Sequence record: NC_052655.1
From: Escherichia phage alia
Direction: 5' to 3' (one strand)
DNA: 64,000 nt
The notes under the pieces were generated by a model. The model made no database searches and was not told the origin of the DNA. It saw nothing but the letters and a program-made list of their open reading frames with translations. The translations under genes and the position numbers were made by a program. Below are positions 4,728-34,446 of the stretch, in pieces. Each line of letters opens with the position of its first letter. Position 1 is the first letter of the stretch.

Positions 4728-5111
4728 ATGAGCAATATCATCAACCTGGCGGCTACTGTAAACGGTAAAGATTTTAACGGCGCTGTAGATCGTGATCCTA
4801 TGTGGTGCTTATCAGTGTTTAAAGGCGATCTGGTTGAAGTTAGAACAACCGAAGGGTATAGCGATGATTATAAATGCGAGATCCATTTACATAACTGGTA
4901 CACGGGTAAAACTTATGCGCTGAATCATGCGTTTATCGGGAAAATTGAATATCGCGAGATGATCGACGAAGAAACGGGGCAAGATTTTAGCGAGCATGTT
5001 TATATTCGTTCAGAAACATTAGCCGAACGTTTGATCGAGAAAATGAAAGCAAAAAATAAAATTAATTTATCTCATTGGATTGATATAACAAACGATCCGG
5101 CTTATCAGTAA
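4728..5111 (+). CDS. hypothetical protein (127 aa)
   Basis: ORF track 4653..5111 begins inside the promoter; ATG 4728 with GAGGAAACACC RBS chosen. Confidence 0.55.
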   Translation: MSNIINLAATVNGKDFNGAVDRDPMWCLSVFKGDLVEVRTTEGYSDDYKCEIHLHNWYTGKTYALNHAFIGKIEYREMIDEETGQDFSEHVYIRSETLAERLIEKMKAKNKINLSHWIDITNDPAYQ

Positions 5112-5127
5112 ATAACATTTCATACAA

Positions 5128-5153
5128 GGGCGCTTATTGCGCCCTTTCTTTTT
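5128..5153 (+). terminator. rho-independent terminator
   Basis: GGGCGC-TTATT-GCGCCC hairpin followed by TTTCTTTTT. Confidence 0.6.
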
Positions 5154-5357
5154 ACCTAAATAAAGATGATAGCTTTTACCTATCAAAAACGTTCACCGAA
5201 AAAAGTGAATAGATCGCGGTATCGAGCTAATCAAGGAGCAGATGAACAACCATACCATGAAGATCATAAGGCGCTTACAGCGTGTTTTAGACCGCTTATT
5301 TTTAATTTCTTCATGTAACTATCTGGCAAAAACAGCCTTTTTCTTGTCTTTCCTCTT

Positions 5358-6488
5358 AAATGATAATCATTCTTATTTATAGCTGATTATTTATGCAATA
5401 AACTGCATAATGCAATAATGATAATCATTCTTAACTTAAGACCATCTAACTTATAAAATAATAAGTTATCTAACTAAATTAAAGCTAATTATCTTACTTT
5501 TATTTATAACATACTGTTACTATCTTATTGATAACCTTATATTAAACAACAATAATCAATGTAAATCATTACTAAGCTAACTATAATCTATCTAACCCTT
5601 AAAACTACAATTATAATCTATCAAATTGTTGCACAAAGTAACTATTAAATTGTTAGTAACATTGCTAAATAATTAATATCCTATCTATTTATGATCTAAT
5701 CTTTACCTCCCTATCTATTACCTAAATAACCATTTCATGTGGTAATCATTTCATACAATAACTATAACAAGAAATATAATTCGCAAGCGTATCATTAGCA
5801 GCCTATGCCGGACACATAGGCGGCTAATAATAACGCAACTACACACCCCACATAATAACCATCACCGATAGTTATTATTTGTGCTTATGTAGCTTGCAAC
5901 AATTGCAAGCGCAACAATATACATGGTATATTGTATCCCTTACATTGTTGCGGTGCGTTATTATTAGCTAATGTTTAGAACATTGGCTATAATATAAGCT
6001 AAGTAATAAGCTAGTCAATAATAAACATAATGAATAATGACATTAATGATCATAATGCGCCACCCTCCAGGGGGCGCTATGTGAACACAAAGAAATCATT
6101 CTTGTCAAGAAAAATATCACCCTATTGCGCAAAATTATTTATATCTGAATAGATGATTTTTCATACTATTGCCCCCTATAACATACCTCATTTGTTGAGC
6201 CTACTTTCTTAAAAGCGCAATAAAGTAGAATTATCTTGATTTTTAGTCGGTTTTATAGTACAGAAAGTATGCAAATGATAATCATTATCAGCTATCCTCC
6301 AGGGTGGCACTATTTCACGCCAGATCATTTCATTTGGCAAGGTGTATATAGATGTTTAGAAATGCCAAGCCATTGATTTACTTAGAATTTATCTGTTTTG
6401 TTGTGAGTAGTACCTTTCTTGCTTAGAAAATAATCAAAAGTCTTATAAGTCATTGAATGATAATGCAAATGATAATTATTCTCATTGA
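5358..6488. repeat. AT-rich non-coding region with iteron-like repeats (core AATGATAATCATT) and repeated CCTCCAGGG(G/T)G(C/G)CAC motif
   Basis: Copies of (A)AATGATAATCATT(C/A)T near 5358, 5415, 6269 and 6455 (degenerate copy near 5741); CCTCCAGGGGGCGCTAT at 6064 and CCTCCAGGGTGGCACTAT at 6297. No credible ORF. Confidence 0.55.
5803..5965. repeat. palindrome-rich segment (hairpin GCCTATG...CATAGGC; inverted TAATAATAACGCAAC / GCGTTATTATTAGC)
   Basis: Read directly from sequence: 7-bp inverted repeat at 5803-5826 and longer inverted repeat arms flanking 5830-5960 with the central TTGCAACAATTGCAA palindrome. Confidence 0.45.
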
Positions 6489-6604
6489 TATTTGAGGGGG
6501 ACGGTCGGCAGAAATCGGGGGGCGCTGAAAATCGCGTTAAGCACCTCTCGCAAGCGAGCAGTATTTTGCGGCAAGTTATTGATATTATTGACTTTACGCT
6601 TATG

Positions 6605-6711
6605 AAAAGGGGTGTGTCGAAATAAATCGGGTATACCGGAAAATTTTTTGTGGCATAGATATTTATTTGTCTATATTATGTACAAAGGGGTGTGTTAAAA
6701 ATAATAGGTAT
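6605..6711. repeat. direct repeat AAAGGGGTGTGT-(N)-AAATAA-(N)-GGTAT, two copies
   Basis: AAAAGGGGTGTGTCGAAATAAATCGGGTAT (6605-6634) and CAAAGGGGTGTGTTAAAAATAATAGGTAT (6683-6711). Confidence 0.5.
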
Positions 6712-6779
6712 ATATAGAATAATTGATAGGGAAATCCTATACTAAATCCTTCATTAATGATGTTCCTATGTTGCTGTTC

Positions 6780-6808
6780 TTGTAACAGATGAAAAGACGC
6801 TGTATGAT
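6780..6808 (+). promoter_or_regulatory. candidate promoter for the downstream plus-strand gene array
   Basis: TTGTAA 6780-6785, 17-nt spacer, TATGAT 6803-6808; lies upstream of the first gene of the array (ATG 6932). Confidence 0.35.
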
Positions 6809-6931
6809 GTGTAGCATGAGACGTAAATTTATAAGATGCAAATAATGCTTGCATTGAATAGAAATGTCTGTACACTGTGTTCCATAAGATATGCAATATC
6901 GCGCATAACAAACTACTAATGAGAGGTGTAA

Positions 6932-7249
6932 ATGAGAACCTTAGCTTTGTATATTGATCCTCACTCCATTCGAGAAATGCGAGATGTACAACAGGATTAT
7001 GAATTCTACCCAGAAATTTGTGAACGCTATGAAACTATTCTTAGTTCTGTAGAAGATCCAGATACTAGTGAAACAGGTGCTTCCCACTTACTGTGGATGT
7101 TGAATGAAATTCAGGATGGGTGTAATGATATGTCTGAAACCAAACGCCATCGTTGGCTAGGCTATATTCAGGGTGTTATGGTTATGAAAAACCTTATTAC
7201 AGTGAACGATGAACGTAACGCTACACGCCCCGTCTTTAATGGAGCATAA
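6932..7249 (+). CDS. hypothetical protein (105 aa)
   Basis: ORF track; GAGAGG RBS; first gene of a co-directional packed array. Confidence 0.55.
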   Translation: MRTLALYIDPHSIREMRDVQQDYEFYPEICERYETILSSVEDPDTSETGASHLLWMLNEIQDGCNDMSETKRHRWLGYIQGVMVMKNLITVNDERNATRPVFNGA

Positions 7250-7250
7250 C

Positions 7251-7466
7251 ATGAAAAGCATTCAGGTGTGTATTGAAAATAATTGTGGTTATCTGGGATT
7301 GACACACGTTGCTTTCCCTCTTATGTTAAATGCCGATATCGCTTACAGCGGAGTTGCTTATGTGTCATTCAAGACAATGAGCCAAGTACCTGGCTGGAAG
7401 TGGGAAGTAGTTGATGTTGTTGAAGGAGAAGACTATGTTTTCCTTCCACACGAATATACTGTTTAA
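7251..7466 (+). CDS. hypothetical protein (71 aa)
   Basis: ORF track 7209..7466; start moved to ATG 7251 immediately after the upstream stop (GGAG upstream). Confidence 0.5.
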   Translation: MKSIQVCIENNCGYLGLTHVAFPLMLNADIAYSGVAYVSFKTMSQVPGWKWEVVDVVEGEDYVFLPHEYTV

Positions 7467-7481
7467 AGAGAGGAAAAGCAG

Positions 7482-7664
7482 ATGGATAAACAAACTACTG
7501 TGTACTTAGTAACAAAGAATACCCTAGACTGGAACCAATGCAGCACTGTCCCTTACAAGATCTGTGCAACATTAGAACTAGCACAACGCGCAGAAGCAGA
7601 AGTGGATGCCATGCAAATGCAACACAGCTATGGTGAGATCATTCCTCTTACTCTTGAACAATAA
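7482..7664 (+). CDS. hypothetical protein (60 aa)
   Basis: ORF track; GAGAGGAAAAG leader. Confidence 0.45.
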   Translation: MDKQTTVYLVTKNTLDWNQCSTVPYKICATLELAQRAEAEVDAMQMQHSYGEIIPLTLEQ

Positions 7665-7675
7665 GGATTTGTGTA

Positions 7676-8128
7676 ATGTTTGAAATTGGTAAAGTGTATC
7701 GTTTTAAGAACCCATCTTATATCCGTAAGTTTGCTAACATGTCTGAGTGCAATAGCAGGATTGCTTCTTTTTTAGGTGATTCCTATTTTCGTGTATTAGA
7801 TGTGGATGATTGGTATGGTGTCACTGCTTTGCAATCCTTAGCAGGAGAACAAGAAATTATCGCTCAAAATGAAGGAGACTTTCTTCAGTGTTACACGTTG
7901 CTTGCAAAAAGTGAGTTTGAGTATTTTGTAGAAGTCTTAGAGGAAGCACCAAAAAGTAAACACGAAGAGAAATACCTGCTTGTAGTGGATGGAGTTCCGA
8001 TCATGGAAACCATCTCCCGTGAGGAAGTTGAAAAAGAGGCGAAACGTTACAAGCTGGATCGTACACAGAGTGTAGTTGAAATCTATTCTCTTATTGGTGT
8101 TGCAGATATTAGTGTGAACATCGTATAA
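7676..8128 (+). CDS. hypothetical protein (150 aa)
   Basis: ORF track; AAGGA leader; packed array. Confidence 0.55.
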   Translation: MFEIGKVYRFKNPSYIRKFANMSECNSRIASFLGDSYFRVLDVDDWYGVTALQSLAGEQEIIAQNEGDFLQCYTLLAKSEFEYFVEVLEEAPKSKHEEKYLLVVDGVPIMETISREEVEKEAKRYKLDRTQSVVEIYSLIGVADISVNIV

Positions 8129-8131
8129 TAT

Positions 8132-8344
8132 ATGTGTAATGACAGATACATTCTTCGTGTATCTGATAAGTCTCCTATGTTTGACTGGCGGGGCTGGTGG
8201 CTACTAGCTCCGATGCAAGGTCTGACAGACGTGGAAAAGGAGGCTTATGTGTATACAAAAGAAGAGATAGAAGATAGTCTTTATTTGACAGATAACATTA
8301 AGAATGGTATCTTTGAGTGTAAATTGAAAGGAGAGGAAGAATGA
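8132..8344 (+). CDS. hypothetical protein (70 aa)
   Basis: ORF track; abuts neighbours. Confidence 0.45.
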   Translation: MCNDRYILRVSDKSPMFDWRGWWLLAPMQGLTDVEKEAYVYTKEEIEDSLYLTDNIKNGIFECKLKGEEE

Positions 8345-8640
8345 CTGTTACAGAAAAACTGCGTTGTATTGCAAAGCAAAGTGGAGAAGGCTTATGGTTT
8401 CCTATTGATGAAGTTATTCAGGACTGTTATGATCAGGCTAAGACTGGCAAATATTCCAAAGCATTTAAACCATCTGTTTTCGGTTTGGATGACTATCCGA
8501 CAAATGAACAAGCAAAGAAACGCCAAGTTGATTTGATTGATCTTGCTATGGAAGCACTACGAGAGCGTGGACTTAGTAAGGTGTATGCTTTAAACACCAA
8601 AGAGGGTTTTGTAGATTCAGTGATCGTAGACTGGTATTAA
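8341..8640 (+). CDS. hypothetical protein (99 aa)
   Basis: ORF track; ATGA overlap with upstream stop; GGAGAGGAAG upstream. Confidence 0.55.
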   Translation: MTVTEKLRCIAKQSGEGLWFPIDEVIQDCYDQAKTGKYSKAFKPSVFGLDDYPTNEQAKKRQVDLIDLAMEALRERGLSKVYALNTKEGFVDSVIVDWY

Positions 8641-8649
8641 GGAGAAGTC

Positions 8650-9018
8650 ATGCAAGAAAATAATAAAGTGTGTAACATGAAAAGCAGCCCCTATTTGCTA
8701 CAATTTTATGAGTGGTGGTTAGAACAAGAAGATACAAACTTTAGCAAAAAGCATTATGGTCTTTGCACGTGTCTTGTAGACTTCTTATACAATATTGCTT
8801 GGATAAAAGATGTTGAGAGTGTATCAAAGCTCCAATCCTCTGTACGAGAGGAAATGAAGGAACAATTTAAGAAAGCGGGTTTGAACCATTTACATCCGTT
8901 TAATACGGATTTCTCGCACTACTTTACGGAAACAGAGCTAGGCATTGCACACCTTAATAAAGAACGTGTACAATGGGTGATTGATCGTATTCGTGATATG
9001 GAGGAATACAATGGTTAA
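8650..9018 (+). CDS. hypothetical protein, paralogue family A (122 aa)
   Basis: ORF track; shares LLQFYxxxL...LHPFN...HLNxxRxxWVxxRI pattern with the 9928..10512 product. Confidence 0.55.
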   Translation: MQENNKVCNMKSSPYLLQFYEWWLEQEDTNFSKKHYGLCTCLVDFLYNIAWIKDVESVSKLQSSVREEMKEQFKKAGLNHLHPFNTDFSHYFTETELGIAHLNKERVQWVIDRIRDMEEYNG

Positions 9019-9220
9019 GTTTAAAACTTTCTGTGCAATCACTGTTTGTCTTATTCTTGCATACGTGTTATTCTCTGGTATCGTTCGTTTAGGTGAGTAT
9101 ATGGCAAGAGAAGCTCGTGAAAGTGCAGCTAAAAAAGAACAGTGTATTGTGTTCAAGCATCAAAGAGATGCTGAAAAATTTCTTGAACAGGATTGTGGGC
9201 GCTATGTGAATTATAATTAG
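9011..9220 (+). CDS. hypothetical membrane-anchored protein, paralogue family B (69 aa)
   Basis: ORF track 8981..9220; start moved to ATG 9011 (GGAGG upstream). N-terminal TM helix plus C-terminal C-I-V-F-K-H...AE-F-L...C motif shared with 13379..13603. Confidence 0.5.
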   Translation: MVKFKTFCAITVCLILAYVLFSGIVRLGEYMAREARESAAKKEQCIVFKHQRDAEKFLEQDCGRYVNYN

Positions 9221-9229
9221 GAGGGAGAT

Positions 9230-9478
9230 ATGTTAGATATTTTTACCTTTGATCGTGTTGGTACACCGATTACCGAAGAAGAACGTACCAAAATTGAACA
9301 AGAATTGGATGCTTTACGTGCGTCTCTTACAGACACAGCCTCACTACAACGTGAAGCTGCACATCTCACAGAGATCACTGGTATTCAGTGGAGCACGGAG
9401 TGGGTTGTAATTACAATTGAAGCGGATATTTGGGGACATGAAGAGACGCTACGTACCGGAGTAGTAACGATTTGGTGA
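9230..9478 (+). CDS. hypothetical protein (82 aa)
   Basis: ORF track; GGAGGGAG RBS. Confidence 0.55.
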   Translation: MLDIFTFDRVGTPITEEERTKIEQELDALRASLTDTASLQREAAHLTEITGIQWSTEWVVITIEADIWGHEETLRTGVVTIW

Positions 9479-9524
9479 TAGATGTTATTCTTTTGTGTTT
9501 CTTGATATATAAATAGGAGGACTT

Positions 9525-9749
9525 ATGGTAAAACGTTTGGAATGGGATGCGTGTACTGCTCACGCTTGTCACTGCGATATTGTTGAAGATCCTAATGGAG
9601 AGATGGTGTATTATGAGGATTACGAAGCATTGCACAATGCTGTGATTGCTTTACTGGATGACATTAGCTCACGCTATCCAGGACAACAGTTTACGTGTCC
9701 ACATATCCAACTATTAGCCAAACTTACGGAGTATCCAAGTGTTCCATAA
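9525..9749 (+). CDS. hypothetical protein, paralogue family C (74 aa)
   Basis: ORF track; AGGAGG RBS; shares CDIVxDPxG...YV...DY motif with 14264..14527. Confidence 0.55.
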   Translation: MVKRLEWDACTAHACHCDIVEDPNGEMVYYEDYEALHNAVIALLDDISSRYPGQQFTCPHIQLLAKLTEYPSVP

Positions 9750-9750
9750 T

Positions 9751-9918
9751 ATGGGTGTCCCTGAACAACTGCTCTTTATTGTAGGATTAGTAGGCTTATT
9801 GGCGGCTGGCGCTAAAGCCGCTTCTCACACGCATCACATAATGTTAAGATTTCTATTCCTGCTCCCTTCTATCCTCGTACTACTAGTCATACTGATCGAT
9901 AACATTTTTCACAATTAA
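9751..9918 (+). CDS. small hydrophobic protein (55 aa), candidate membrane protein
   Basis: Not in ORF track. ATG 9751 directly after upstream stop; translation contains LLFIVGLVGLLAAGA and LFLLPSILVLLVILI hydrophobic stretches; no clear SD. Confidence 0.3.
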   Translation: MGVPEQLLFIVGLVGLLAAGAKAASHTHHIMLRFLFLLPSILVLLVILIDNIFHN

Positions 9919-9927
9919 GGAGAGGCT

Positions 9928-10512
9928 ATGAGTAAAATTATACCAAGCAGTTATGAATTATTGCAGTTTTATGTATATTACTTAGACTGGGTTAATAGAT
10001 CGAATGTTAAAGACAATGCGATGTTTAGTAAAAACATCTGTTTAACAGAAAGTATCTTCCGTTATTGGCACACAGGCAGAAAGTGTACACACAGTGAAGC
10101 TATGCGTATTGTAGGTGAATACCTGGAGCAATTGCAAAAAGCAGAACTTCCTGTCCTTCACCCATTCAATGAATCTAAAGAAGAATTAGAACAAGAGTGT
10201 AGAGAAGGTAAGTGCCATTTGAATGAAAAACGTATCGAATGGGTGAGGCAACGTTTAGCCGATGCAGGAAAGACTCCTAGTGACTCTGACTATACGTGGT
10301 ATGATGTAGAGGGTTTAGTTCAAGGTTTTGAGGCTTGTGCTATAGATAATACAAACTTTGCCAAAGTTTTATGCGAGGCGTATGACCTGGCAGATAAAAT
10401 CCGAAATCACGGATGGAAACAAGAGCATAAAGAATCATATGAACGCCTTGACAAGATTTTCAAACAGATCTATTCTAACCACAAGAAGATGTTCCAAATG
10501 GAGGATGTGTAA
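9928..10512 (+). CDS. hypothetical protein, paralogue family A (194 aa)
   Basis: ORF track; AAGGAGAGG RBS; paralogue of 8650..9018. Confidence 0.6.
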   Translation: MSKIIPSSYELLQFYVYYLDWVNRSNVKDNAMFSKNICLTESIFRYWHTGRKCTHSEAMRIVGEYLEQLQKAELPVLHPFNESKEELEQECREGKCHLNEKRIEWVRQRLADAGKTPSDSDYTWYDVEGLVQGFEACAIDNTNFAKVLCEAYDLADKIRNHGWKQEHKESYERLDKIFKQIYSNHKKMFQMEDV

Positions 10513-10578
10513 TGAAAGAGATTATGTTTGAAGGGCATCGCATTGAATTGCTAAAACACGTTAAATAAGGAGAGTAAT

Positions 10579-10983
10579 ATGTGGTCTGTTAAAATCAAAT
10601 ATAATGCGCAGTATTATGGTGGAAAGCCTTACGAAGTTGTTATTTGTGACTGTATCTCTAAAGAAGTTGCACAGCTTTGTGGTGCTGGTGTTAGTGAAGC
10701 TATGAACAAAATGCATAACTCGACTGTGCGTTACCTGGATCAAGATATTCCAGAAGATGTAAATGACTATGCTTACGAAGTTATTTACAGTGAAGGTAAG
10801 AAGCTCTCTATTGAAGATGCACTTAAAGCACTACCTGTTATGTGCAGCCCAACACCAGAAGCAGTTAAAGAGATTTTACCAGAATCCAACCCCGATGAAT
10901 ATGCTTCTATGGTTGCTTCAGATATGTGGAATCTCTGTCGAGAAACTATGATTAAAAATCTTGTGGAAATGGCGCATGAGTAA
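10579..10983 (+). CDS. hypothetical protein (134 aa)
   Basis: ORF track; AAGGAGAG RBS. Confidence 0.55.
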   Translation: MWSVKIKYNAQYYGGKPYEVVICDCISKEVAQLCGAGVSEAMNKMHNSTVRYLDQDIPEDVNDYAYEVIYSEGKKLSIEDALKALPVMCSPTPEAVKEILPESNPDEYASMVASDMWNLCRETMIKNLVEMAHE

Positions 10984-11194
10984 AACACACTTTATACATC
11001 CGTTTGATCCAAAGAACAAGGCGGTTATACACCGCCGTTGGACTGAAACGCGCATTACAAAATGTCCTGTGCCAGCAGCACAGGAATATAACAAAACATA
11101 TAAAGCAGAATTTGTGGAGTACACCTTTGTAAATAACAAAGGGAAGGAGGTTTATGTTCCAGAATACTGCCTTTGGATAAAATGGGAGGAATAA
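10976..11194 (+). CDS. hypothetical protein (72 aa)
   Basis: ORF track 10961..11194; start moved to ATG 10976 overlapping the upstream stop. Confidence 0.45.
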   Translation: MSKTHFIHPFDPKNKAVIHRRWTETRITKCPVPAAQEYNKTYKAEFVEYTFVNNKGKEVYVPEYCLWIKWEE

Positions 11195-11361
11195 TGCAAA
11201 CATTTTTTATCGACAAGTTCAATAAAAGTATGAACACGTGGATGGCAACATTCACTATGCAATTTGCGTCATTTAAAGAAGCTCAAGAATGGTGCGATCA
11301 ACACAAGGATTTTGATTTTTACTATCAAGTTAATGCAAACCTTTCTCCAGAGGAGAAATAA
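11194..11361 (+). CDS. hypothetical protein (55 aa)
   Basis: ORF track 11173..11361; start moved to ATG 11194 (GGGAGG 4-5 nt upstream). Confidence 0.45.
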   Translation: MQTFFIDKFNKSMNTWMATFTMQFASFKEAQEWCDQHKDFDFYYQVNANLSPEEK

Positions 11362-11362
11362 T

Positions 11363-11707
11363 ATGTTAGCTGATATTGAAATCCTTATGTACCGACAAGG
11401 TATGATCAAAATGTGGCTAGATTCTTTTAGCAACATATACTGCACAGTACGATCAGCAGACGAGCGTAAAACGCTTATTTTATCTGCTATTGTTGATAAA
11501 CAACGTTTCTTCAAAGAAATTTTGCAAACAGGCTTCTCCGATGCAGGAGTAGAGATTGCAACGCTTAGTCTTGGAGTGCTGTCTTACTTGGAATCCGTTG
11601 TTTTATATGTCTTCTCTTTAGAAGAACACTTGCAATTTGAAGCATTAAAACTTATCTTAGATGCTGCAATTGACATAGAACAAAATCGAATTGATTCTTT
11701 TGAATAA
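11363..11707 (+). CDS. hypothetical protein (114 aa)
   Basis: ORF track 11264..11707; start moved to ATG 11363 (AGAGGAGAAATAAT upstream), giving a non-overlapping chain. Confidence 0.5.
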   Translation: MLADIEILMYRQGMIKMWLDSFSNIYCTVRSADERKTLILSAIVDKQRFFKEILQTGFSDAGVEIATLSLGVLSYLESVVLYVFSLEEHLQFEALKLILDAAIDIEQNRIDSFE

Positions 11708-11723
11708 AAATAAGGAGGAAACT

Positions 11724-12182
11724 ATGCAAGAGGTTAAACATTATCCACATGGTCGTAGTTTTGTAGCTGTATGGCATGTTCCTGCTCGTAATGAACTATT
11801 TTGTGCATCTTTTCATTACAAAGATGGACAATATTTCACCTATGACGAAACGATGGATGATTTTATCCCAGAGTGCGATCATGGGTATACACCAATGTTC
11901 TTTAAACGTATGAAAGCTCGTTTCTTCGTTACAGATGTTGATGGTGAACCTACTTGGCACATCGAAGAAGATTGGCAAGATTCTGTGGATATTAAAGAAG
12001 CCCCAGAATGGGCTACATTACTGGTACACGTCAAAACCCCTACTCTTGACGTTATGGCGTGGGTTAATCATGATGATACCCATTACCAATACATAAATGG
12101 TAGCACAGAGATTTCTGGTGAGATTATTGGTCGTTGGAAGCCTACGAATCAGGTTGCTATTGTCGGGTATAAGACAGTATAA
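11724..12182 (+). CDS. hypothetical protein (152 aa)
   Basis: ORF track 11691..12182; start moved to ATG 11724 (AAGGAGGAAACT upstream). Confidence 0.55.
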   Translation: MQEVKHYPHGRSFVAVWHVPARNELFCASFHYKDGQYFTYDETMDDFIPECDHGYTPMFFKRMKARFFVTDVDGEPTWHIEEDWQDSVDIKEAPEWATLLVHVKTPTLDVMAWVNHDDTHYQYINGSTEISGEIIGRWKPTNQVAIVGYKTV

Positions 12183-12183
12183 T

Positions 12184-12378
12184 ATGAAAAATAATGTAGA
12201 TTGGGATGATTTATCCGATTTTGAAAAATGGTTCTTAGGTAGTGGTTGTTATGCAGACGGGGATCTCGAAAGAGATCCTTCTGGAAACTACACTATGCCA
12301 TTAACCCAAGGTTTTTATGAGTGCTGGTGCGCAGCACAAAACAACGTACTGAATAAGGAGACAACACAATGCAATTAA
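12184..12378 (+). CDS. hypothetical protein (64 aa)
   Basis: ORF track 12097..12378; start moved to ATG 12184 after the upstream stop; SD weak. Confidence 0.4.
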   Translation: MKNNVDWDDLSDFEKWFLGSGCYADGDLERDPSGNYTMPLTQGFYECWCAAQNNVLNKETTQCN

Positions 12379-12608
12379 ACATCGGACAACCAATTTTTGA
12401 TGCAGATACTGGTCAATATGCAGTGATTGTTGCTCGTATGAGCGGTGATGACCTTATTGTTTCAGAACTACTCGGATCAGATCCGCAACTGCGCGTAGTA
12501 TGTGACCTATATCTTCGAGACGAAAGTGATCGCATTGCACTGAAAGAAGATGGTATGCTCTACTACACCTGGACTAGAGATCCTGGAGTAACGGAGGTAG
12601 AGGTATAA
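12369..12608 (+). CDS. hypothetical protein (79 aa)
   Basis: ORF track; AAGGAGACAAC upstream. Confidence 0.5.
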   Translation: MQLNIGQPIFDADTGQYAVIVARMSGDDLIVSELLGSDPQLRVVCDLYLRDESDRIALKEDGMLYYTWTRDPGVTEVEV

Positions 12609-12907
12609 TGGTAAGGAATAGGGGTTTACATAAAAGAAGACACCTTACTTACTGGCATCGTAAAGTACATGAACCTGTATCAAAGAAAGAATGGCAATAT
12701 CTGCCTTATGGGAAGGAGCGAAGAAAGTATTTGTTAGCTCATTTAAGGGTACATGGTTCTCTTCCTGTTAACAGTAAGTGGCAATTGCAAACAGCTTATG
12801 ACGAAGATATGAAATATCTGTTAAAGAGAGGCATTATTTGCCTTGTTAAGATCGGACGATGGAAATCTCGTCAATCTTATATCGTACTTAAACAGGAGAA
12901 ACGATGA
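12608..12907 (+). CDS. hypothetical basic protein (99 aa)
   Basis: ORF track; GGAGGTAGAGG upstream; K/R-rich. Confidence 0.5.
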   Translation: MVRNRGLHKRRHLTYWHRKVHEPVSKKEWQYLPYGKERRKYLLAHLRVHGSLPVNSKWQLQTAYDEDMKYLLKRGIICLVKIGRWKSRQSYIVLKQEKR

Positions 12908-13155
12908 ATATCAAAGATGTTGTAGCATACGTAGAAGATGAAGTTAAAAACCATACAAGTTTACTGAAAGTAATGGTTGTGGTTAAAGATGGTATTGGAC
13001 AAGTAAACGTACAACATGTCTTATCTGACACTGTATATAATGTGTTTGAATGTAAAGAAACACCTCATGGAGTACGTGTGGTTTATATTGATAACAATTT
13101 CAAAGAATGTGTGAGACATACCTTAGAAAATGAACTAAGGATCACAATCTTATGA
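12904..13155 (+). CDS. hypothetical protein (83 aa)
   Basis: ORF track; ATGA overlap; CAGGAG upstream. Confidence 0.5.
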   Translation: MNIKDVVAYVEDEVKNHTSLLKVMVVVKDGIGQVNVQHVLSDTVYNVFECKETPHGVRVVYIDNNFKECVRHTLENELRITIL

Positions 13156-13325
13156 GTTATTATGTTGTACCTTATGCCAATAAGTGGAGAGTAAGAGAAA
13201 CTTGTTTTCTATTCTCCTGGTGGGCTACGTTCGGAGATGGTTGTGGAAATGATACAGGGAAGCCTGTAGAGTACGACACAAAAGAAGAATGTGAACAGTG
13301 GATAAAATTAACACAAAGATGTTGA
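13152..13325 (+). CDS. hypothetical Cys-containing small protein (57 aa)
   Basis: Not in ORF track. ATGA-coupled to upstream stop; translation MSYYVVPYANKWRVRETCFLFSWWATFGDGCGNDTGKPVEYDTKEECEQWIKLTQRC. Confidence 0.35.
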   Translation: MSYYVVPYANKWRVRETCFLFSWWATFGDGCGNDTGKPVEYDTKEECEQWIKLTQRC

Positions 13326-13378
13326 CACGATCTTAACTTCTTGTTAGTATCAATGTGTACTAACGATAAGGAGGGTTT

Positions 13379-13603
13379 ATGAAGTCTGTAAACAAGTTGC
13401 AACAATTTTTGTTATCAACAGCAATCTTTTTGCTTTTGTTAATTGGTATTCTGTATGGTGCATCTAATTTGTACAATCTACATAATGATGTAGAACAGAA
13501 CAAAGAGAAGTGCATCATTCTAAAACACAATAAACAAGCAGAAGATTTCTTAAAGAATAAGTGTTACAACTACATTGATTATGAGGAGACAAACAATGAT
13601 TAA
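13379..13603 (+). CDS. hypothetical membrane-anchored protein, paralogue family B (74 aa)
   Basis: ORF track; AAGGAGGG RBS; TM helix plus C-I-I-L-K-H...AE-F-L...C motif as in 9011..9220. Confidence 0.55.
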   Translation: MKSVNKLQQFLLSTAIFLLLLIGILYGASNLYNLHNDVEQNKEKCIILKHNKQAEDFLKNKCYNYIDYEETNND

Positions 13604-13838
13604 AGAATTAGGTATGCGAGTATACAGTGAGTGGACTCCAAGCAATGGCCCAGGAGTTGTTGCAGCTAAATGTATCAATGGTCGTATTGAGTACCTGGAA
13701 GGGTATGAAGATAATGAAGAGTTAGTAGATTATGCTAAATCTTTTATTGAAGATGATACAGACTTTATTGTATTATATGATACAGGAGAGTTAGAGTATG
13801 GATATGATGGAGATGGGGATATCTTTGAACTTCAATAA
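13596..13838 (+). CDS. hypothetical protein (80 aa)
   Basis: ORF track 13575..13838; start moved to ATG 13596 (GAGGAG upstream). Confidence 0.5.
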   Translation: MIKELGMRVYSEWTPSNGPGVVAAKCINGRIEYLEGYEDNEELVDYAKSFIEDDTDFIVLYDTGELEYGYDGDGDIFELQ

Positions 13839-14045
13839 GAGTAGTAAGTAAGGTATAAAGAGTATATAGTTAGTTATAGAGTTAGTAACATTACATATAC
13901 TCTTTCCATGTATAACATGGAATATTCTCTACCTCGCTATCGCTCGGTATATAAGATTAGGGTAGCATGTTTTTTACGAAAAGTAAAACTGTTTATACCG
14001 ATTGATAGCAGGTTTTTAATAGATTTTATCTATGAGGAGTAGAAA

Positions 14046-14264
14046 GTGTACAAATTATATAAAGCAAAAGATAAGTTTACGGGTAATACATCTGGTTTCT
14101 ATGTAACACCACGTGGTGTTGCTGTGTTTGATTGGATCTCTGGTACGCCAGATCGTGAAATGATCTCTCTTGTAAAACTGTCAGAACAAGATTATACTTA
14201 CGGTGACATTACAACGTTCTATTCTCGTGCAGAAAATCCAAAACTAATTGCGGAGTGGGAATAA
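14046..14264 (+). CDS. hypothetical protein (72 aa), GTG start
   Basis: ORF track; GAGGAG 7 nt upstream of GTG 14046; follows a 200-nt AT-rich spacer. Confidence 0.45.
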   Translation: MYKLYKAKDKFTGNTSGFYVTPRGVAVFDWISGTPDREMISLVKLSEQDYTYGDITTFYSRAENPKLIAEWE

Positions 14265-14527
14265 TGGTTACACGATATGGCTTAGAGGTGTACAGTCAAG
14301 GTGCTGCTGGTCAATGTGATATTGTACCAGATCCAGAAGGAGATTATGTTCTCCTTGCCGATTACAATAAGCTAGAAGAAAGACTTCTGGCTGTGTATGC
14401 TAAAGAGAACAAAACAATCTGTCCTTATTGCAGTGGCATGGGTTGGGTGGTTGCAGATGTTGGACAAATGTACGAATGTGTACCTTGTAAAACCACAGGC
14501 TTTATTGAAAAGGATACTAACAAATGA
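14264..14527 (+). CDS. hypothetical protein, paralogue family C (87 aa)
   Basis: ORF track 14255..14527 (GTG); ATG 14264 chosen. C-terminal CxxC...CxxC cysteine pairs; shares CDIVPDPEGDYV motif with 9525..9749. Confidence 0.5.
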   Translation: MVTRYGLEVYSQGAAGQCDIVPDPEGDYVLLADYNKLEERLLAVYAKENKTICPYCSGMGWVVADVGQMYECVPCKTTGFIEKDTNK

Positions 14528-14772
14528 CTGTAGCAGATAGAATGAGAGAACTAGCAGAAAACGCAGAACTTAACAAAGCAAAGGATAGTCTACAAAATAT
14601 CTACTCGTATATTGAGAGAGCAGCTAAAGATGGAGACAGAGAAGTTGCTATATACACGCTTTATCCAACTTTTGTAAAAGTTAACTTGGATGCTGAAGGT
14701 TTTTCAACTTTTATTGATACAGAAACATCTCATTACGACGAAAACTTTACTCGAATAGTTATTCGATGGTAA
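14524..14772 (+). CDS. hypothetical protein (82 aa)
   Basis: ORF track; ATGA overlap. Confidence 0.5.
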   Translation: MTVADRMRELAENAELNKAKDSLQNIYSYIERAAKDGDREVAIYTLYPTFVKVNLDAEGFSTFIDTETSHYDENFTRIVIRW

Positions 14773-14877
14773 ATTTCTGACATTTATGCGCCCTGGCTAC
14801 CTGGGCGTAATAAATTCAGCTTATATTTGATCCGCGCCTTCGGCGCTTAGGCAAAGCCACGCCACACAGGAGGGTTT

Positions 14878-15288
14878 ATGTTCAAATGGTTAAAAGGGTT
14901 TCTAACATCTTTGGCAGAACCTAAGCAAGATGTTATTAAAAGCTCTATCACAGGGAAACCGCTTGTTATAGTTACAGGCGGCTTTGGTCATGGGTTTTCT
15001 CTTAAACAAACAGATATAGGCTTACAGGGGTGTCTGATTAGTTTTAGAATCACTCAATTAGGAGATAATAGACAAACAATCTTAGATCTTTTCAATGGGG
15101 AGTTTGATGATTATTTATCTAAGAGTGATAAAGAACGTCTGATCGAGCATATAAAACACCGCTATGAGCGTGGTGGTTACTATTTAGAGACAAAACGTAA
15201 TTCACAAGGTGATCTTGACATAGTTAGCATAGCGTGGGATAATGAATTTAAAACTAAACTTGGTAAACTTCTGGAGGAGTTATGGTAA
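14878..15288 (+). CDS. hypothetical protein (136 aa)
   Basis: ORF track; AGGAGGG RBS; follows GC-rich hairpins at 14790-14850. Confidence 0.55.
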   Translation: MFKWLKGFLTSLAEPKQDVIKSSITGKPLVIVTGGFGHGFSLKQTDIGLQGCLISFRITQLGDNRQTILDLFNGEFDDYLSKSDKERLIEHIKHRYERGGYYLETKRNSQGDLDIVSIAWDNEFKTKLGKLLEELW

Positions 15289-15464
15289 ATATTAAAACAG
15301 GTGATATTGTACGTCTTGCCAGCGAAGAAATGTTAATGACTGTAATGGTATCTACTTACGATACTTGCGAAGTGGTGTGGTTTGATGTTAATGAGCAACT
15401 ACAGAAAGCTACATTTGATAAACGTATGCTTCGTAAAGTTGAAGAAGTGAAGGAGGAAGAATAA
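15282..15464 (+). CDS. hypothetical protein (60 aa)
   Basis: ORF track; GGAGGAG upstream. Confidence 0.45.
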   Translation: MVNIKTGDIVRLASEEMLMTVMVSTYDTCEVVWFDVNEQLQKATFDKRMLRKVEEVKEEE

Positions 15465-15465
15465 T

Positions 15466-15678
15466 ATGGGAATGTTGCTTCGTGTTTTTGTGTTTCTTAT
15501 GTTCTGGATTATCGTTGGTAACGGTATTGTATTTTTGATTTTTCCTGAAGTGATGACAGGTAATGAAAATAAGGCAGTGCCTTACATTATGCTTATCGGT
15601 TACGGTATTGGTACACTTGGACTACTGTTTGCTGATTGGTTAATCAATACTTTGTTCTCTAAGTACAGGAACAACTAA
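15466..15678 (+). CDS. hypothetical membrane protein (70 aa, two predicted TM helices)
   Basis: ORF track; translation has two hydrophobic stretches (VFVFLMFWIIVGNGIVFLIF and YIMLIGYGIGTLGLLFADWLI). Confidence 0.5.
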   Translation: MGMLLRVFVFLMFWIIVGNGIVFLIFPEVMTGNENKAVPYIMLIGYGIGTLGLLFADWLINTLFSKYRNN

Positions 15679-15679
15679 T

Positions 15680-15952
15680 ATGTCGGAAAACTTACCTAAT
15701 GTTTTCTTTTGTTTTGTAGATTGTGTTACACAAGAAATTATAGTTGACGAAGAAGGTATGTTTACTTATTTTGCATCTGAAGAAGAGGCAAAACTATCAG
15801 CTATGAAATGTATAAGCCAAATGTCAGTATCTGCTGTCAACAGGTTCGGTATTGCCCAGGTGTATAAAACAGTAACAGAGTTTACACCAGATCGAAAACT
15901 AACTTTTCTTAACGTTCACTTTGTTTGTAAGTTTAGTGAACTACGACATTAA
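15680..15952 (+). CDS. hypothetical protein (90 aa)
   Basis: ORF track. Confidence 0.5.
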   Translation: MSENLPNVFFCFVDCVTQEIIVDEEGMFTYFASEEEAKLSAMKCISQMSVSAVNRFGIAQVYKTVTEFTPDRKLTFLNVHFVCKFSELRH

Positions 15953-15966
15953 AAGCAGGAGTAAAA

Positions 15967-16566
15967 ATGAAAGAATATTGGAGTGGTGAGAAGGGCTTGC
16001 TAAAGCCAGGGATGCTTTTGCGAGTAAAGAACATGTTGATCACACAAGATTACATAATGCCTAATCCTGGAGCATTAGTAGAATTCCTTACTGCGCGAGA
16101 TCAACCTGGGGTTGGTGAAATGTGGATTGTAACGTGGATATCTCTCGATAGTAAATTGCGCGTTGCTCCTATTGACCCAAAACACTTGGAATCTCCTTAC
16201 GCCAGCATTGATTCTCGGATCATAGATTTGGCTAGAGTTTATAAGGCTAGGACTGGTGTAGAATTAGATGTAGAAATTTTAAATCAATGTATTGACTTCT
16301 TACCTGAAAAAGTGCATAATGCACAACAAGAAGATAGCAGTTTAGAAGTTATTCTTCTGAATGATGGGATGTTCTCTGGTTTGGCATCTGTAGATTTTCC
16401 AATAACATTAAGATTGTTACCTGGAGAATACGTACTAGATGAAGATACTATTGCTATATCCTCTAAAATTTTAGAACTCATTCCAGGTGCAAGGTGTGTT
16501 GGTGATACATCTTCCTTGCTGTTTACTCTGAATGAAGAAGCCGTTATAGTTAAAAAGGAGAAGTAA
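15967..16566 (+). CDS. hypothetical protein (199 aa)
   Basis: ORF track; AGCAGGAG RBS. Confidence 0.6.
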   Translation: MKEYWSGEKGLLKPGMLLRVKNMLITQDYIMPNPGALVEFLTARDQPGVGEMWIVTWISLDSKLRVAPIDPKHLESPYASIDSRIIDLARVYKARTGVELDVEILNQCIDFLPEKVHNAQQEDSSLEVILLNDGMFSGLASVDFPITLRLLPGEYVLDEDTIAISSKILELIPGARCVGDTSSLLFTLNEEAVIVKKEK

Positions 16567-16671
16567 ATGATGACGTTTATTGTTGGTGTTGTTGTTGGTT
16601 ATTTTGGTCACAAGTATCAGGATGTTATCATCGCTAAAGTTGACGAAGTAATCGAAAAATTTAAACACTAA
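16567..16671 (+). CDS. small membrane peptide (34 aa)
   Basis: Not in ORF track. ATG directly after upstream stop with AAGGAGAAG upstream; translation MMTFIVGVVVGYFGHKYQDVIIAKVDEVIEKFKH. Confidence 0.35.
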   Translation: MMTFIVGVVVGYFGHKYQDVIIAKVDEVIEKFKH

Positions 16672-16722
16672 TTTTCTAAAAGGCTGTACTATTGTGCAGC
16701 CTATCTTTCAAAGGAGAGTAAA

Positions 16723-16896
16723 ATGTTCAAAGATACCAATTATAAATGTGTACATTGTGGTAAATCTTTTGGTGATCACCAAGCTAAGACGTTCAATTGT
16801 CCACGAAAAGGGCGAGGTAGCTTTAAAGGTTTTAATCCATCCCACGTTTATTCTCCCAACTACGAGAAACCAGAAGAAGAAAAATTTGTAATCTGA
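16723..16896 (+). CDS. small Cys-pair protein (57 aa), possible zinc-ribbon
   Basis: AAGGAGAG 6 nt upstream of ATG 16723; translation MFKDTNYKCVHCGKSFGDHQAKTFNCPRKG... has CxxC plus a third Cys. Preferred over the overlapping track ORF 16694..16891 (different frame, no RBS). Confidence 0.45.
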   Translation: MFKDTNYKCVHCGKSFGDHQAKTFNCPRKGRGSFKGFNPSHVYSPNYEKPEEEKFVI

Positions 16897-16905
16897 GGAG
16901 GCAAT

Positions 16906-17193
16906 ATGGAACTAGTACAAGAAGTTTATGAAAAACTAAAAGAAGAGAATCTTGATTGGCCTGAACATGCTCTTATTGTCGTCAAAGATACTAATGGTGA
17001 AATAAAATTCTCAAGTGTAAGTGAAGACGATGTTGTTTTAAGTCCTACAGGATATTATATGAGAGGTGTTACGTGTCTATTCAACACCAAAGTGTATCCT
17101 GAAGTTAAACTTAGTTACGGTGAACCTGATCATCCAGAAATCGTTACACGTAATGAATATGAAAATTATTATTTTGCTCGTGAAAGCAAATAA
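16906..17193 (+). CDS. hypothetical protein (95 aa)
   Basis: ORF track; GAGGAGG RBS. Confidence 0.55.
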   Translation: MELVQEVYEKLKEENLDWPEHALIVVKDTNGEIKFSSVSEDDVVLSPTGYYMRGVTCLFNTKVYPEVKLSYGEPDHPEIVTRNEYENYYFARESK

Positions 17194-17201
17194 GGAAAAC
17201 T

Positions 17202-17525
17202 ATGCAAAAAATAAACACTGGTTCTCGTCCTAAACAGAAGCAAACAAAAGCAAGGGTATCTTATGTTGATAACTCTTGTTATAATTTTAAAAATGTTAAA
17301 GAAGTCATCATTGACGAAAAAGAAGGTTTGATTCACATTTCATCTGAACGTTTGAAAGGTAGTGTTACTCTTCGTGAGAATGTATCTATACCTATGAAAG
17401 TTGTGGTTACACTCTGTGTTGATAAGCCAGATGTTGTTAACTATTATGTGTTCCGTGATAGTTGTATTTCATCACATAATAAGATTTTTAAATCTTCGCA
17501 CGTTAAAACAAAACACATTGTATAA
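17202..17525 (+). CDS. hypothetical protein (107 aa)
   Basis: ORF track; AAGGAAAACT upstream; followed by terminator. Confidence 0.55.
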   Translation: MQKINTGSRPKQKQTKARVSYVDNSCYNFKNVKEVIIDEKEGLIHISSERLKGSVTLRENVSIPMKVVVTLCVDKPDVVNYYVFRDSCISSHNKIFKSSHVKTKHIV

Positions 17526-17531
17526 CACATA

Positions 17532-17553
17532 AACCCGCTTCGGCGGGTTTTCT
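17532..17553 (+). terminator. rho-independent terminator
   Basis: AACCCGC-TTCG-GCGGGTT hairpin followed by TTCTTG. Confidence 0.5.
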
Positions 17554-17610
17554 TGTATGTATGCTCTTTATCTGTTATAAACACTTTTAGCATAAACAAT
17601 AGGAGGTATT

Positions 17611-17832
17611 ATGTCTGTAGTTGTAGAAGGTAGTATTGGTTTCTTAGTAGATAATCCTCACCCTTTCGTGGTTAAGGTTCATATTCAAGAAAAGGTAAGC
17701 AACAATACGTGGCTGTGCTTGTTAGATAGTAAGATACACTCTTATACAGAGGTTTATCTTCACACTTGGCAAATTGGTACAATAACAGCAGAGGATGAAT
17801 TGATAATTGAACTATATGAACGAGATCTATAG
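17611..17832 (+). CDS. hypothetical protein (73 aa)
   Basis: ORF track; AGGAGG RBS. Confidence 0.5.
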   Translation: MSVVVEGSIGFLVDNPHPFVVKVHIQEKVSNNTWLCLLDSKIHSYTEVYLHTWQIGTITAEDELIIELYERDL

Positions 17833-17910
17833 ATGACTTTACTAGAGAGTATTGTAGTGTTAATCATCTTTATCATTATTGTCATAGGATATTTTACAGA
17901 AGACTAAAAT

Positions 17911-17946
17911 AAAGCCCCTAGAAGCGATTCTAGGGGCTTTTGTTTG
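17911..17946. terminator. bidirectional rho-independent terminator at the plus/minus strand switch
   Basis: GCCCCTAG-AAGCGATT-CTAGGGGC hairpin flanked by an A-run upstream and a T-run downstream; sits between convergent gene ends 17832(+) and 18008(-). Confidence 0.6.
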
Positions 17947-18007
17947 CATTAGGTAGGGAAACGTATTACTAGAATAAAAAGTGCGTTAGAATGCGTTACA
18001 GGAGGTT

Positions 18008-18265
18008 TTAAGAATGCATAAAATCTTCTTCAGGGCAGGTTGAGAGATAAGAGATGCACGTTGGGACAACAACAACATTATCTTTAAGGTTTTCAACCAA
18101 GCCTTTTGTAATCCCAGCCACTGCCCCGTTAATATCTGCTTGACGGATACCAAAGCCTTGTTGTGCGGATAGATAACAAAATCCCTCACCTTTCTGTTGA
18201 TTGTTATTGAAGTAATAAACGTAGTGCATCATAAAATGGTCTTTAACGATTTGCTCTGTGGTCAT
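18008..18265 (-). CDS. hypothetical protein (85 aa)
   Basis: ORF track; minus-strand AGGAG RBS upstream of ATG; last gene of the minus-strand block. Confidence 0.5.
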   Translation of the reverse strand: MTTEQIVKDHFMMHYVYYFNNNQQKGEGFCYLSAQQGFGIRQADINGAVAGITKGLVENLKDNVVVVPTCISYLSTCPEEDFMHS

Positions 18266-18282
18266 AATATTCTCCTATAAGA

Positions 18283-18300
18283 AAAGGGGCTTTCGCCCCC
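18283..18300 (-). terminator. rho-independent terminator (GGGGCTTTCGCCCC family)
   Basis: Minus-strand RNA would form GGGGGCGAAAGCCCC followed by UUUU; downstream of the Sir2-like gene. The same core recurs at 29567 and 42655. Confidence 0.5.
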
Positions 18301-18309
18301 TTGGTTAAG

Positions 18310-30250: not shown

Positions 30251-30517
30251 TTACTCCGCAATCTGAGCCATGAATTCACGTAGTTCAGAAAAACCTCCTA
30301 CGTGGGTTAGCTGTTCACCATCTTCCACAAAAATCTGAGGGAATGTGCGTGGTAGAACACCTGTTTTCTCTAAAACCAGATTCTGAAGCTGATCTAAAGA
30401 ATAGTCTTCATCTAAGGTAAGATATTTAAAATCCTGTTCACGCTGTTCCAGTAGAATCTTAGCGTTAGTGCAGAAAGGACAATTTGGTTTACCGTAGATA
30501 ATAAAATTCATTTTCAC
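30251..30517 (-). CDS. glutaredoxin/NrdH-like redoxin
   Basis: Active-site CPFC at residues 13-16 in an 88-aa thioredoxin-fold-sized protein; located beside the nucleotide-metabolism genes. Confidence 0.8.
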   Translation of the reverse strand: MKMNFIIYGKPNCPFCTNAKILLEQREQDFKYLTLDEDYSLDQLQNLVLEKTGVLPRTFPQIFVEDGEQLTHVGGFSELREFMAQIAE

Positions 30518-34308: not shown

Positions 34309-34443
34309 TATCTTCCTCCTCTTCTTTTTCTTCTATATGAACGAAACCTAAACCGTTACAATTCCAACAAGGAATAAATTGTTCCATACTAACAATAAAA
34401 TTCCCAGTGCCGCCGCAGATAGGACAAATACTTACATCGTCCA
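34297..34443 (-). CDS. small zinc-ribbon protein (48 aa)
   Basis: Not in ORF track. Minus-strand GAGGAG RBS then ATG; translation MDDVSICPICGGTGNFIVSMEQFIPCWNCNGLGFVHIEEKEEEEDSGG has CxxC...CxxC. Confidence 0.4.
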
Positions 34444-34446
34444 TTA

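Follow-up and report, generated by a model that had tools for sequence, protein, structure and literature searches.

Three pairs of diverged paralogous small genes near the genome end of Escherichia phage alia

Introduction

Large lytic phages have multi-copy families of early or "pre-early" accessory genes, and lambdoid phages have an accessory exo-xis/ea region. Here, we describe six small genes that resemble the members of these systems and lie in a stretch of 64,000 nucleotides from Escherichia phage alia (NC_052655.1), hereafter referred to as the window. An earlier note on this DNA, made from the letters alone, had grouped the six into three pairs of diverged paralogs, A1/A2, B1/B2, and C1/C2, within a long plus-strand operon. 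Like the multi-copy early families and the exo-xis/ea region, the locus is characterized by small genes, short or overlapping junctions, location in first-entering DNA, and variable copy number. The likeness to the lambdoid ea region extends to gene content, as an E. coli prophage has a family A member next to its Ead/Ea22 and DUF551 genes. In contrast to these shared features, a sequence relationship to the characterized members of the early, "pre-early", and exo-xis/ea families was not found.

The closest described relatives of the individual families can be summarized as follows. A1 and A2 both match the uncharacterized groups phrog_2510, phrog_27059, and phrog_6418 as well as pVOG VOG7392; as compared to the phrog_2510 group, A2 adds a fused C-terminal domain, which is a separate gene in Phapecoctavirus. 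The proteins that family B recalls are Sp and Imm of phage T4, which mediate superinfection exclusion, and the T4 antiholin RI. All three are proteins of ~70-100 amino acids with an N-terminal anchor and a short periplasmic domain, and Imm and Sp are early. The likeness of family B to them is one of architecture only, with neither sequence nor profile similarity found; its PHROG matches are to families of unknown function, and its C-x17-C motif is specific to it. In family C, the tail of C2 has the CxxCxGxG pattern of the DnaJ cysteine-rich domain (PF00684) and of anti-TRAP (PF15777). This similarity is weak (E 0.014-0.028 with Pfam and 0.004 with NCBIfam), reaching ~15-17 bits as compared to curated cut-offs of 32-65 bits, with PF00684 at 15.1 bits and below its Pfam gathering threshold of 32.7. 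Unlike DnaJ, C2 has a single two-motif unit and no J domain, while C1 lacks the zinc-finger tail altogether. Last, the N-terminal module of C1 matches a part of the Lar-like profile phrog_3592 that does not include the Lar zinc-ribbon core.

With a probability of roughly 0.6, we favor the reading that the six genes represent three old and mutually unrelated early accessory families, in each of which two copies of diverged function have been retained, and that their targets are probably functions of the host or of competitors.

Results

The three gene pairs are paralogous

The coordinates and the motifs quoted in the earlier note proved exact, and the six genes match gp006, gp007, gp008, gp010, gp022, and gp025 of phage phi92:

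8650..9018, plus strand: A1, ortholog of phi92 gp006, 122 amino acids, a single family A domain.
9011..9220, plus strand: B1, ortholog of phi92 gp007, 69 amino acids, with a predicted transmembrane (TM) helix at residues 7-25, a variable linker, and a C-x17-C tail.
9525..9749, plus strand: C1, ortholog of phi92 gp008, 74 amino acids, with an N-terminal module (N-module, ~9525-9659) and a PGQxFTCPH tail.
9928..10512, plus strand: A2, ortholog of phi92 gp010, 194 amino acids, with a family A domain (~9928-10281) and a C-terminal domain (~10282-10512).
13379..13603, plus strand: B2, ortholog of phi92 gp022, 74 amino acids, with the architecture of B1.
14264..14527, plus strand: C2, ortholog of phi92 gp025, 87 amino acids, with an N-module (~14264-14401) and a putative zinc finger (~14408-14512).

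The start of B1 lies within the end of A1, the two genes overlapping by 8 nucleotides. In the phi92 annotation, all six orthologs are listed as hypothetical, and each is assigned a ribosome-binding site (RBS); gp022 additionally carries a predicted signal peptide and gp025 the remark "DnaJ-like zinc finger". Phages phi92, Paula, Antha, and muut are among 54 deposited genomes of Justusliebigvirus (Stephanstirmvirinae, phi92-like) that match positions 8000-15000 of the window over the full length at 95-99% identity; the genome itself shares ~98% identity with many deposited phages.

Using BLASTP, we found that A1 and A2 align at 46.2 bits with 31% identity over 114 amino acids (E 8e-12 pairwise and 8e-10 window-wide), B1 and B2 at 35-38 bits (2e-9 and 4e-8), and C1 and C2 at 28.9 bits over 32 amino acids (7e-7 and 1.6e-4). 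In an all-against-all comparison of 145 non-overlapping open reading frames (ORFs) of the window, the A, B, and C pairs ranked first, second, and fourth, while the third place was taken by two sugar-nucleotide enzymes of the short-chain dehydrogenase/reductase (SDR) type.

Similarities of this kind could be chance matches between short ORFs of similar composition, or some of the ORFs might not be genes at all. In a control with 20 shuffles of all 145 proteins, the best off-diagonal scores ranged from 24.3 to 32.0 bits. The A and B pairs scored above every shuffle, and their similarity is safely and clearly above chance. The C pair, in contrast, falls inside the shuffled range when its pairwise score is taken alone, which would fit a chance match, and its case was settled by outside profiles. 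Among the 546 ORFs of the window, gp104 of the Wifcevirus Mansfield matched only C1 (1.7e-11) and C2 (1.1e-5). A hidden Markov model (HMM) of the C N-module, built without C1 and C2 and only from proteins of other phages and of metagenomes, likewise found only C1 (6.8e-22) and C2 (1.6e-10) in the same set. Single-copy relatives of family B from phAPEC8 and a Klebsiella phage matched only B1 (~1e-11) and B2 (~1e-6 to 1e-7), and PHROG profiles cross-match within each of the pairs A, B, and C. Thus, sequences and profiles from outside the window select exactly the predicted partners, and chance similarity is excluded for the three pairs. Furthermore, all six ORFs are conserved across 9-11 genomes with a ratio of nonsynonymous to synonymous polymorphism (pN/pS) below 1. 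The RBS annotated for each and the pN/pS values well below 1 across 11 genomes argue that the six ORFs are real genes. We consider it extremely improbable that the pairs reflect chance matches or spurious ORFs. Together, BLASTP, shuffles, outside sequences, HMM, and PHROG profiles bear out the proposed paralogy of the three small-gene pairs.

The pairs are old and their families are shared with other phages

The pairs had been interpreted as the product of repeated duplication within one operon. Of this claim, the paralogy stands, but a recent local origin does not, since the identity of only ~30% within the pairs indicates that they are ancient rather than recent local duplicates. All three families are found in other phage genera. 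A1 and A2, which are 29% identical, are not sister sequences in a star-like tree of copies sharing 22-53% identity. A third family A copy of phage muut, muut_121, is 93% identical to one of the Phapecoctavirus copies (L004, positions 12738-13106), which points to a recent horizontal exchange between the two genera. The three families are old and have been gained, lost, and exchanged, rather than having arisen by recent local duplications.

Family A is a large family with a conserved signature

A1 consists of a single domain of ~110 amino acids, while A2 contains the same domain followed by a C-terminal domain of ~75 amino acids. The additional domain matches a separate small ORF located after an A gene in Phapecoctavirus (L004, positions 21171-21398). 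Since the domain there forms a gene of its own directly 3' of a family A gene, A2 is a fusion. Its C-terminal part also matches phrog_24126 and phrog_25020. Both proteins match phrog_2510 (A1, 1e-25; A2, 7e-18) and phrog_27059 (A1, 2e-8; A2, 9e-140), and they score 149 and 162 bits with our local family A HMM. Structure prediction, one of the checks that the earlier note had proposed, gave a confident AlphaFold2 (AF2) model of A1 (predicted local distance difference test, pLDDT, 85.6), which is compact and all-helical, with six helices. No relative of family A was found in PDB or Pfam; a PDB sequence match to parathyroid hormone was dismissed as spurious.

The signature of the family, L..F.Y...W, GLC, PF, and N..R..WV, is present in both A1 and A2, and its residues are 91-99% conserved across 196 diverse family A domains. 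Near-invariant are the L, F, Y, and W of helix 1, G-L-C (94-96%), and P-F (99%), while the four positions of N..R..WV reach 95%, 99%, 95%, and 91%; an E is conserved to 86% and an H to 77%. A word-indexed search with A1 and A2 gave essentially self-matches, and a scan of viral contigs gave close relatives only. The wider set was obtained with an 11-sequence alignment search and with an HMM run exhaustively against 1.84 billion representative proteins. The latter yielded 1,470 family A clusters (at 50% identity) with E ≤ 1e-3, of which 613 reached E ≤ 1e-10. Thousands of phages carry family A. Most matches are stand-alone proteins of 100-125 amino acids; among the 181 proteins examined in detail, 13 had two domains and one had three. 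Ten longer fusion proteins contained no Pfam partner domain except for one DUF551.

A six-frame HMM scan showed that the window contains exactly two family A copies, in addition to a remnant of eight codons:

6835-6858, plus strand: final 8 codons of a third gene of family A (tblastn, 8/8 identity, C-terminus only).

The remnant is located beside a synteny breakpoint at 6833. The corresponding gene is intact in muut (muut_121; L012, positions 1-368) and Paula (PAULA_0067; L011, positions 1-227), where it is found directly after the terminal repeat, and is deleted in the window. The muut annotation assigns VOG7392 to the orthologs of A1 and A2 and to the third copy. The copy number of family A is thus two in the window, three in muut and Paula, and at least eight in Phapecoctavirus phiWec179, in which the copies lie within 12 kb and three are arranged in tandem. 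Other homologs were found in the N4-like phage Ea9-2, at a distance of 2.3 kb from its left end; just 3' of homologs of N4 gp1, gp2, and gp8; and among the clustered small genes of a T1-like Skatevirus. In a lambdoid prophage of E. coli, a homolog is flanked by cI/cro on one side and by Ead/Ea22, DUF551, and exonuclease genes on the other. The genomic context of family A is consistently early or accessory.

Family B proteins share a membrane-anchored architecture

B1, B2, and their relatives in phAPEC8 and the Klebsiella phage phi1_175008 share one architecture. The N-terminus is short and net positive in three of the four lineages. It is followed by a single strongly hydrophobic helix, with 19-residue Kyte-Doolittle means of 2.3-2.8 (maximum of 2.55 in B1), and by a variable linker of 15-20 residues. 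The tail conforms to E-x-C-I-[IV]-[LF]-K-[HY]-x3-A-E-x-F-L-x3-C-x3-[VI]-x-Y, with both cysteines invariant in the four lineages. The profiles phrog_15662 and phrog_23204 give reciprocal matches with the family, with cross-hits at 4e-6 and 1e-8, while sequence matches in PDB covered only TM segments and were regarded as spurious. Among sister phages, B1 occurs as two C-terminal alleles.

Family B is predicted to consist of bitopic (single-TM) membrane proteins. Following the positive-inside rule, the tail is probably periplasmic, and the two cysteines could form a disulfide in this compartment.

Family C combines a small N-terminal module with different tails

The homology between C1 and C2 is confined to an N-terminal module of ~40 amino acids, while the C-terminal halves are unrelated. 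The consensus of the module is M-[VI]-x-R-[YL]...C-[DE]-[IV]-V-x-D-x-x-G-x-x-V-x-x-x-D-Y-x-x-L, after which comes a helix. In the AF2 model of C2, which is poor (pLDDT 53.5), residues 20-30 tentatively form a β-hairpin and residues 31-48 a helix. A PDB sequence search with family C gave no match, and the N-termini of phrog_23083 and phrog_22955 correspond to the N-module.

The tails differ from protein to protein. The PGQxFTCPH tail of C1 is common to a Phapecoctavirus protein of 148 amino acids, Mansfield gp104 combines the module with a coiled coil and an 80-amino-acid domain, and metagenomic relatives carry helical or acidic tails. The tail of C2 contains the DnaJ-like motifs CPYCSGMG ... 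CVPCKTTG, the second of which reads CxxCxxxG. A paralog of this half of C2 is encoded on its own elsewhere in the window:

34298-34444, minus strand: stand-alone zinc-finger ORF, 48 amino acids, paralog of the C2 C-terminal half (27.7 bits, E 1.8e-4 window-wide).

The ORF comprises a CxxCxGxG...CxxCxGxG zinc finger and an acidic tail (MDDVSICPICGGTGNF...CWNCNGLGF...EEKEEEEDSGG). Small ORFs related to it are called "DNA ligase" in several Phapecoctavirus records; as they are only ~75 amino acids long, this label looks like an annotation error.

Two further assignments within family C were considered and rejected. The product of gp023 (13596-13838) was suspected to be a third member on account of a YED motif shared in a C1 chimera (see below), but the module HMM was negative. 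The second concerned C1 as a Lar-like restriction alleviation protein. The match to phrog_3592, obtained with the N-modules of C1 and P0192 at E ~9e-4, covers profile positions 4-50 of 182 and is confined to the N-module, and no Pfam Lar match was found at E up to 1. C2 does not match phrog_3592. This suggests that some phrog_3592 members share the C module rather than that C1 is Lar.

The six genes lie near the genome end in a block with presence/absence variants

Positions 6198-6759 of the window correspond to the left physical end of phi92, including a direct terminal repeat of 343 bp, and a gene-poor stretch at ~5300-6900 surrounds this mapped end. Because the phi92 left end maps inside the window, the window spans the genome terminus in a permuted assembly, and the six genes lie 2-8 kb inside the genome end that enters first. 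The first of them is ~2.3 kb from the mapped terminus. All six sit in an ~11-kb block of small plus-strand ORFs, which ends at a terminator:

17911-17940, both strands: strong bidirectional terminator hairpin, 13-bp stem with 6 GC pairs, ending the plus-strand early block.

ORF orientation switches at ~18000, near this hairpin. Positions 5000-18500 contain 24 terminator-like hairpins as compared to 6.4 expected from shuffles, the strong ones including 5126-5146, 17531-17550, and 17911-17940; the same interval shows no enrichment of promoter-like sites (57 versus 49.7).

The block varies among relatives. In the metagenomic protein P0190, residues 1-32 of C1 continue in frame into the C-terminus of gp023. 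The corresponding contig of 1.5 kb (Logan SRR3713844_547, L016) has the gene order gp005-A1-B1-chimera-gp024 and thus lacks ~4.1 kb from gp009 through gp022, including A2 and B2. The deletion junction lies at ~938-953 on the contig, corresponding to window positions 9627 and 13704, and displays ~9-16 nucleotides of microhomology (TATGAAGAT). A microhomology of only this length points to a real illegitimate-recombination variant instead of an assembly artefact. The variant hints that A2 and B2 may be dispensable.

Two other presence/absence polymorphisms were noted in the block. The 687-bp gene gp011 ("Eaa-like") is present in phi92, PHB05, Paula, and muut and absent at positions 10512-10579 of the window as well as in ECGD1, W22, and AMO3598. 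An ORF of 82 amino acids at 9230-9478 (plus strand) is present in Paula, muut, and W22 and absent from phi92, PHB05, and ECGD1. In some records, the latter is called "M20/M25/M40 family metallo-hydrolase", a label that Pfam does not support (the best match, at E 0.009, being to an unrelated family) and that is probably a propagated annotation error.

Families A and C are constrained, while family B shows excess amino-acid polymorphism

The earlier note had also placed the paralogs under diversifying selection. Pooled Nei-Gojobori pN/pS was calculated for the window together with ten further genomes of Justusliebigvirus. The ratios were 0.12 for A1, 0.10 for A2, 0.05 for C1, and 0.08 for C2, in the range of most neighboring genes (0.00-0.23), whereas B1 (0.57) and B2 (0.29) had the highest pN in the block. 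To avoid the non-independence of pairwise sums, we also counted polymorphic codon sites. Families A (26 nonsynonymous to 57 synonymous sites, p = 0.79) and C (11:30, p = 0.86) resembled the background. In contrast, family B had 24 nonsynonymous and 17 synonymous sites, while the remaining genes had 118 and 282, an odds ratio of 3.4 (Fisher p = 3e-4). A and C are thus shown to be under purifying selection, and the proposal of diversifying selection does not apply to them. In family B, an excess of amino-acid polymorphism was indeed found, although pN/pS remained below 1. The substitutions in B are mostly located in the TM helix and the linker and hardly affect the C-x17-C core, a distribution with which relaxed constraint and diversifying selection in B are not separable.

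The strong purifying selection on A and C is what would be expected if the six proteins, instead of being directed at the host, served the early programme of the phage itself (transcription, replication initiation, or DNA protection) as regulators or structural cofactors, with the paralogs acting at different stages or sites. The invariant polar residues of family A (C39, E94, N103, and R106), which suggest a defined ligand or an active site, are compatible with this alternative, as are the zinc finger of C2 and the neighboring genes annotated in phi92 as possible transcription regulators. It is more difficult to reconcile with the copy number of family A, which varies from 1 to 8, and with its movement between unrelated phages that differ in their core programmes (myoviruses, N4-like and T1-like phages, and lambdoid prophages). 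A natural variant apparently without A2 and B2 and the membrane anchor of family B also speak against it, and we consider this alternative improbable.

The polymorphism of family B touches on another alternative, namely, that all six are specifically anti-defence proteins, the paralogs of which counter different variants of immune systems, the expansion of copies reflecting an arms race. The earlier note had spoken more broadly of host-interaction or anti-defence factors. The location of the genes agrees with that broader proposal, as they occupy an immediate-early region near the terminus, vary in copy number, and have a relative in the accessory early region of a lambdoid prophage; a tie to a known protein of this kind was not found, as none of the six matched a known anti-defence or host-takeover family in the profile libraries. 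For the narrower, purely anti-defence explanation, there are the same position and copy-number variation, the small size of the proteins, the horizontal exchange seen with muut_121, the excess polymorphism of family B, and the weak similarity between the C N-module and phrog_3592, "Lar-like restriction alleviation" (~9e-4). However, the known anti-defence families are unmatched by any of the six, and the Lar-like match is limited to the shuffled N-module and lacks Pfam support. Moreover, A and C are as constrained as their neighbors, unlike typical arms-race genes at such a timescale. The only anti-defence gene that the AntiDefenseFinder paper names in Justusliebigvirus is Atd1, a MazG-like pyrophosphatase, and no MazG match was found for any of the six proteins, so that an identity with Atd1 was rejected. 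On balance, a purely anti-defence role appears rather unlikely, if less so than a role in the phage's own programme.

Other features of the window

Two further small proteins of the early block, gp009 (9739-9918, plus strand, 59 amino acids) and gp029 (15466-15678, plus strand, 70 amino acids), are very hydrophobic and apparently have two hydrophobic segments each. Together with B1 and B2, they bring the number of small membrane proteins predicted for the block to at least four. Several neighboring genes in the block are annotated in phi92 as possible transcription regulators.

Outside the block, the ORFs at 30514-31344 and 32785-33774 (both minus strand) are rml-type genes, matching an RmlD substrate-binding domain (1e-73) and a dTDP-glucose/GDP-mannose 4,6-dehydratase-like SDR (1e-82), respectively. 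They belong to the same superfamily and align at 42.7 bits, which makes them the sole additional pair of paralogs in the window with a significant score. Their presence suggests that the phage encodes a deoxy-sugar pathway.

Among the database records, the "Campylobacter phage" sequences A150, C3, and A110a (MG065639.1, MG065656.1, and MG065689.1; L015) are 95-99% identical to E. coli Justusliebigvirus genomes, and the A150 record is flagged UNVERIFIED. Probably, either the host label is wrong or the samples were contaminated.

Discussion

In the reading that we favor, the six genes would be accessory host-takeover genes, non-essential for core replication, and each family would be kept as two diverged copies, the roles of which are probably different. 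Family A is envisaged as a cytoplasmic protein whose task would be to bind or modify some conserved component of the host or the phage, and its lineage-specific copy number (2 to 8) would correspond to different targets. Family B would be anchored N-in/C-out with a disulfide-stapled periplasmic tail and might act at the envelope, for example in superinfection exclusion or by modulating an inner-membrane or periplasmic host protein. The faster-evolving B linker is consistent with such an envelope role. The module of family C could serve as a shared docking or oligomerization element that delivers different effector tails, such as the zinc finger in C2.

Several points weigh against this reading. 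The early expression of the six genes is deduced from position only, and the strong purifying selection on A and C would also fit an involvement in the phage's own early regulation. The topology and the disulfide of family B are predictions from sequence, and its nonsynonymous excess, found largely in the linker, may reflect relaxed constraint instead of adaptation. Last, the deletion variant is known from one 1.5-kb metagenomic contig of a single sample.

A bolder version can be put forward only tentatively. Family A might represent a large, phage-specific, and structurally new class of immediate-early host-takeover or anti-defence effectors, with no fold relative, in which the near-invariant C/E/N/R and aromatic residues form a pocket for ligand binding or catalysis and which has expanded to up to eight copies per genome in the DNA that enters first. 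The N-module of family C might be a portable adaptor through which different effector tails reach one host hub. We regard this as possible, but not as the likely outcome.

The genes and the genome are already public, and pVOG and PHROG already co-classify the family A copies; our literature searches found no description of these particular paralogies. As small paralogous early genes are a familiar feature of large lytic phages, the observation of the three pairs is correct but routine, and it leaves the current understanding unchanged unless a function is found for families A, B, and C. The families nevertheless differ in what they offer. Family C illustrates the shuffling of a small N-terminal module between different early proteins. 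Of the three pairs, family B alone gives evidence of accelerated protein evolution, and it is predicted to face the periplasm, which makes it a candidate player in envelope-level conflict between phages or between phage and host. Family A, a large and well-defined domain with a confident model and no known relative, is a good candidate for functional screening.

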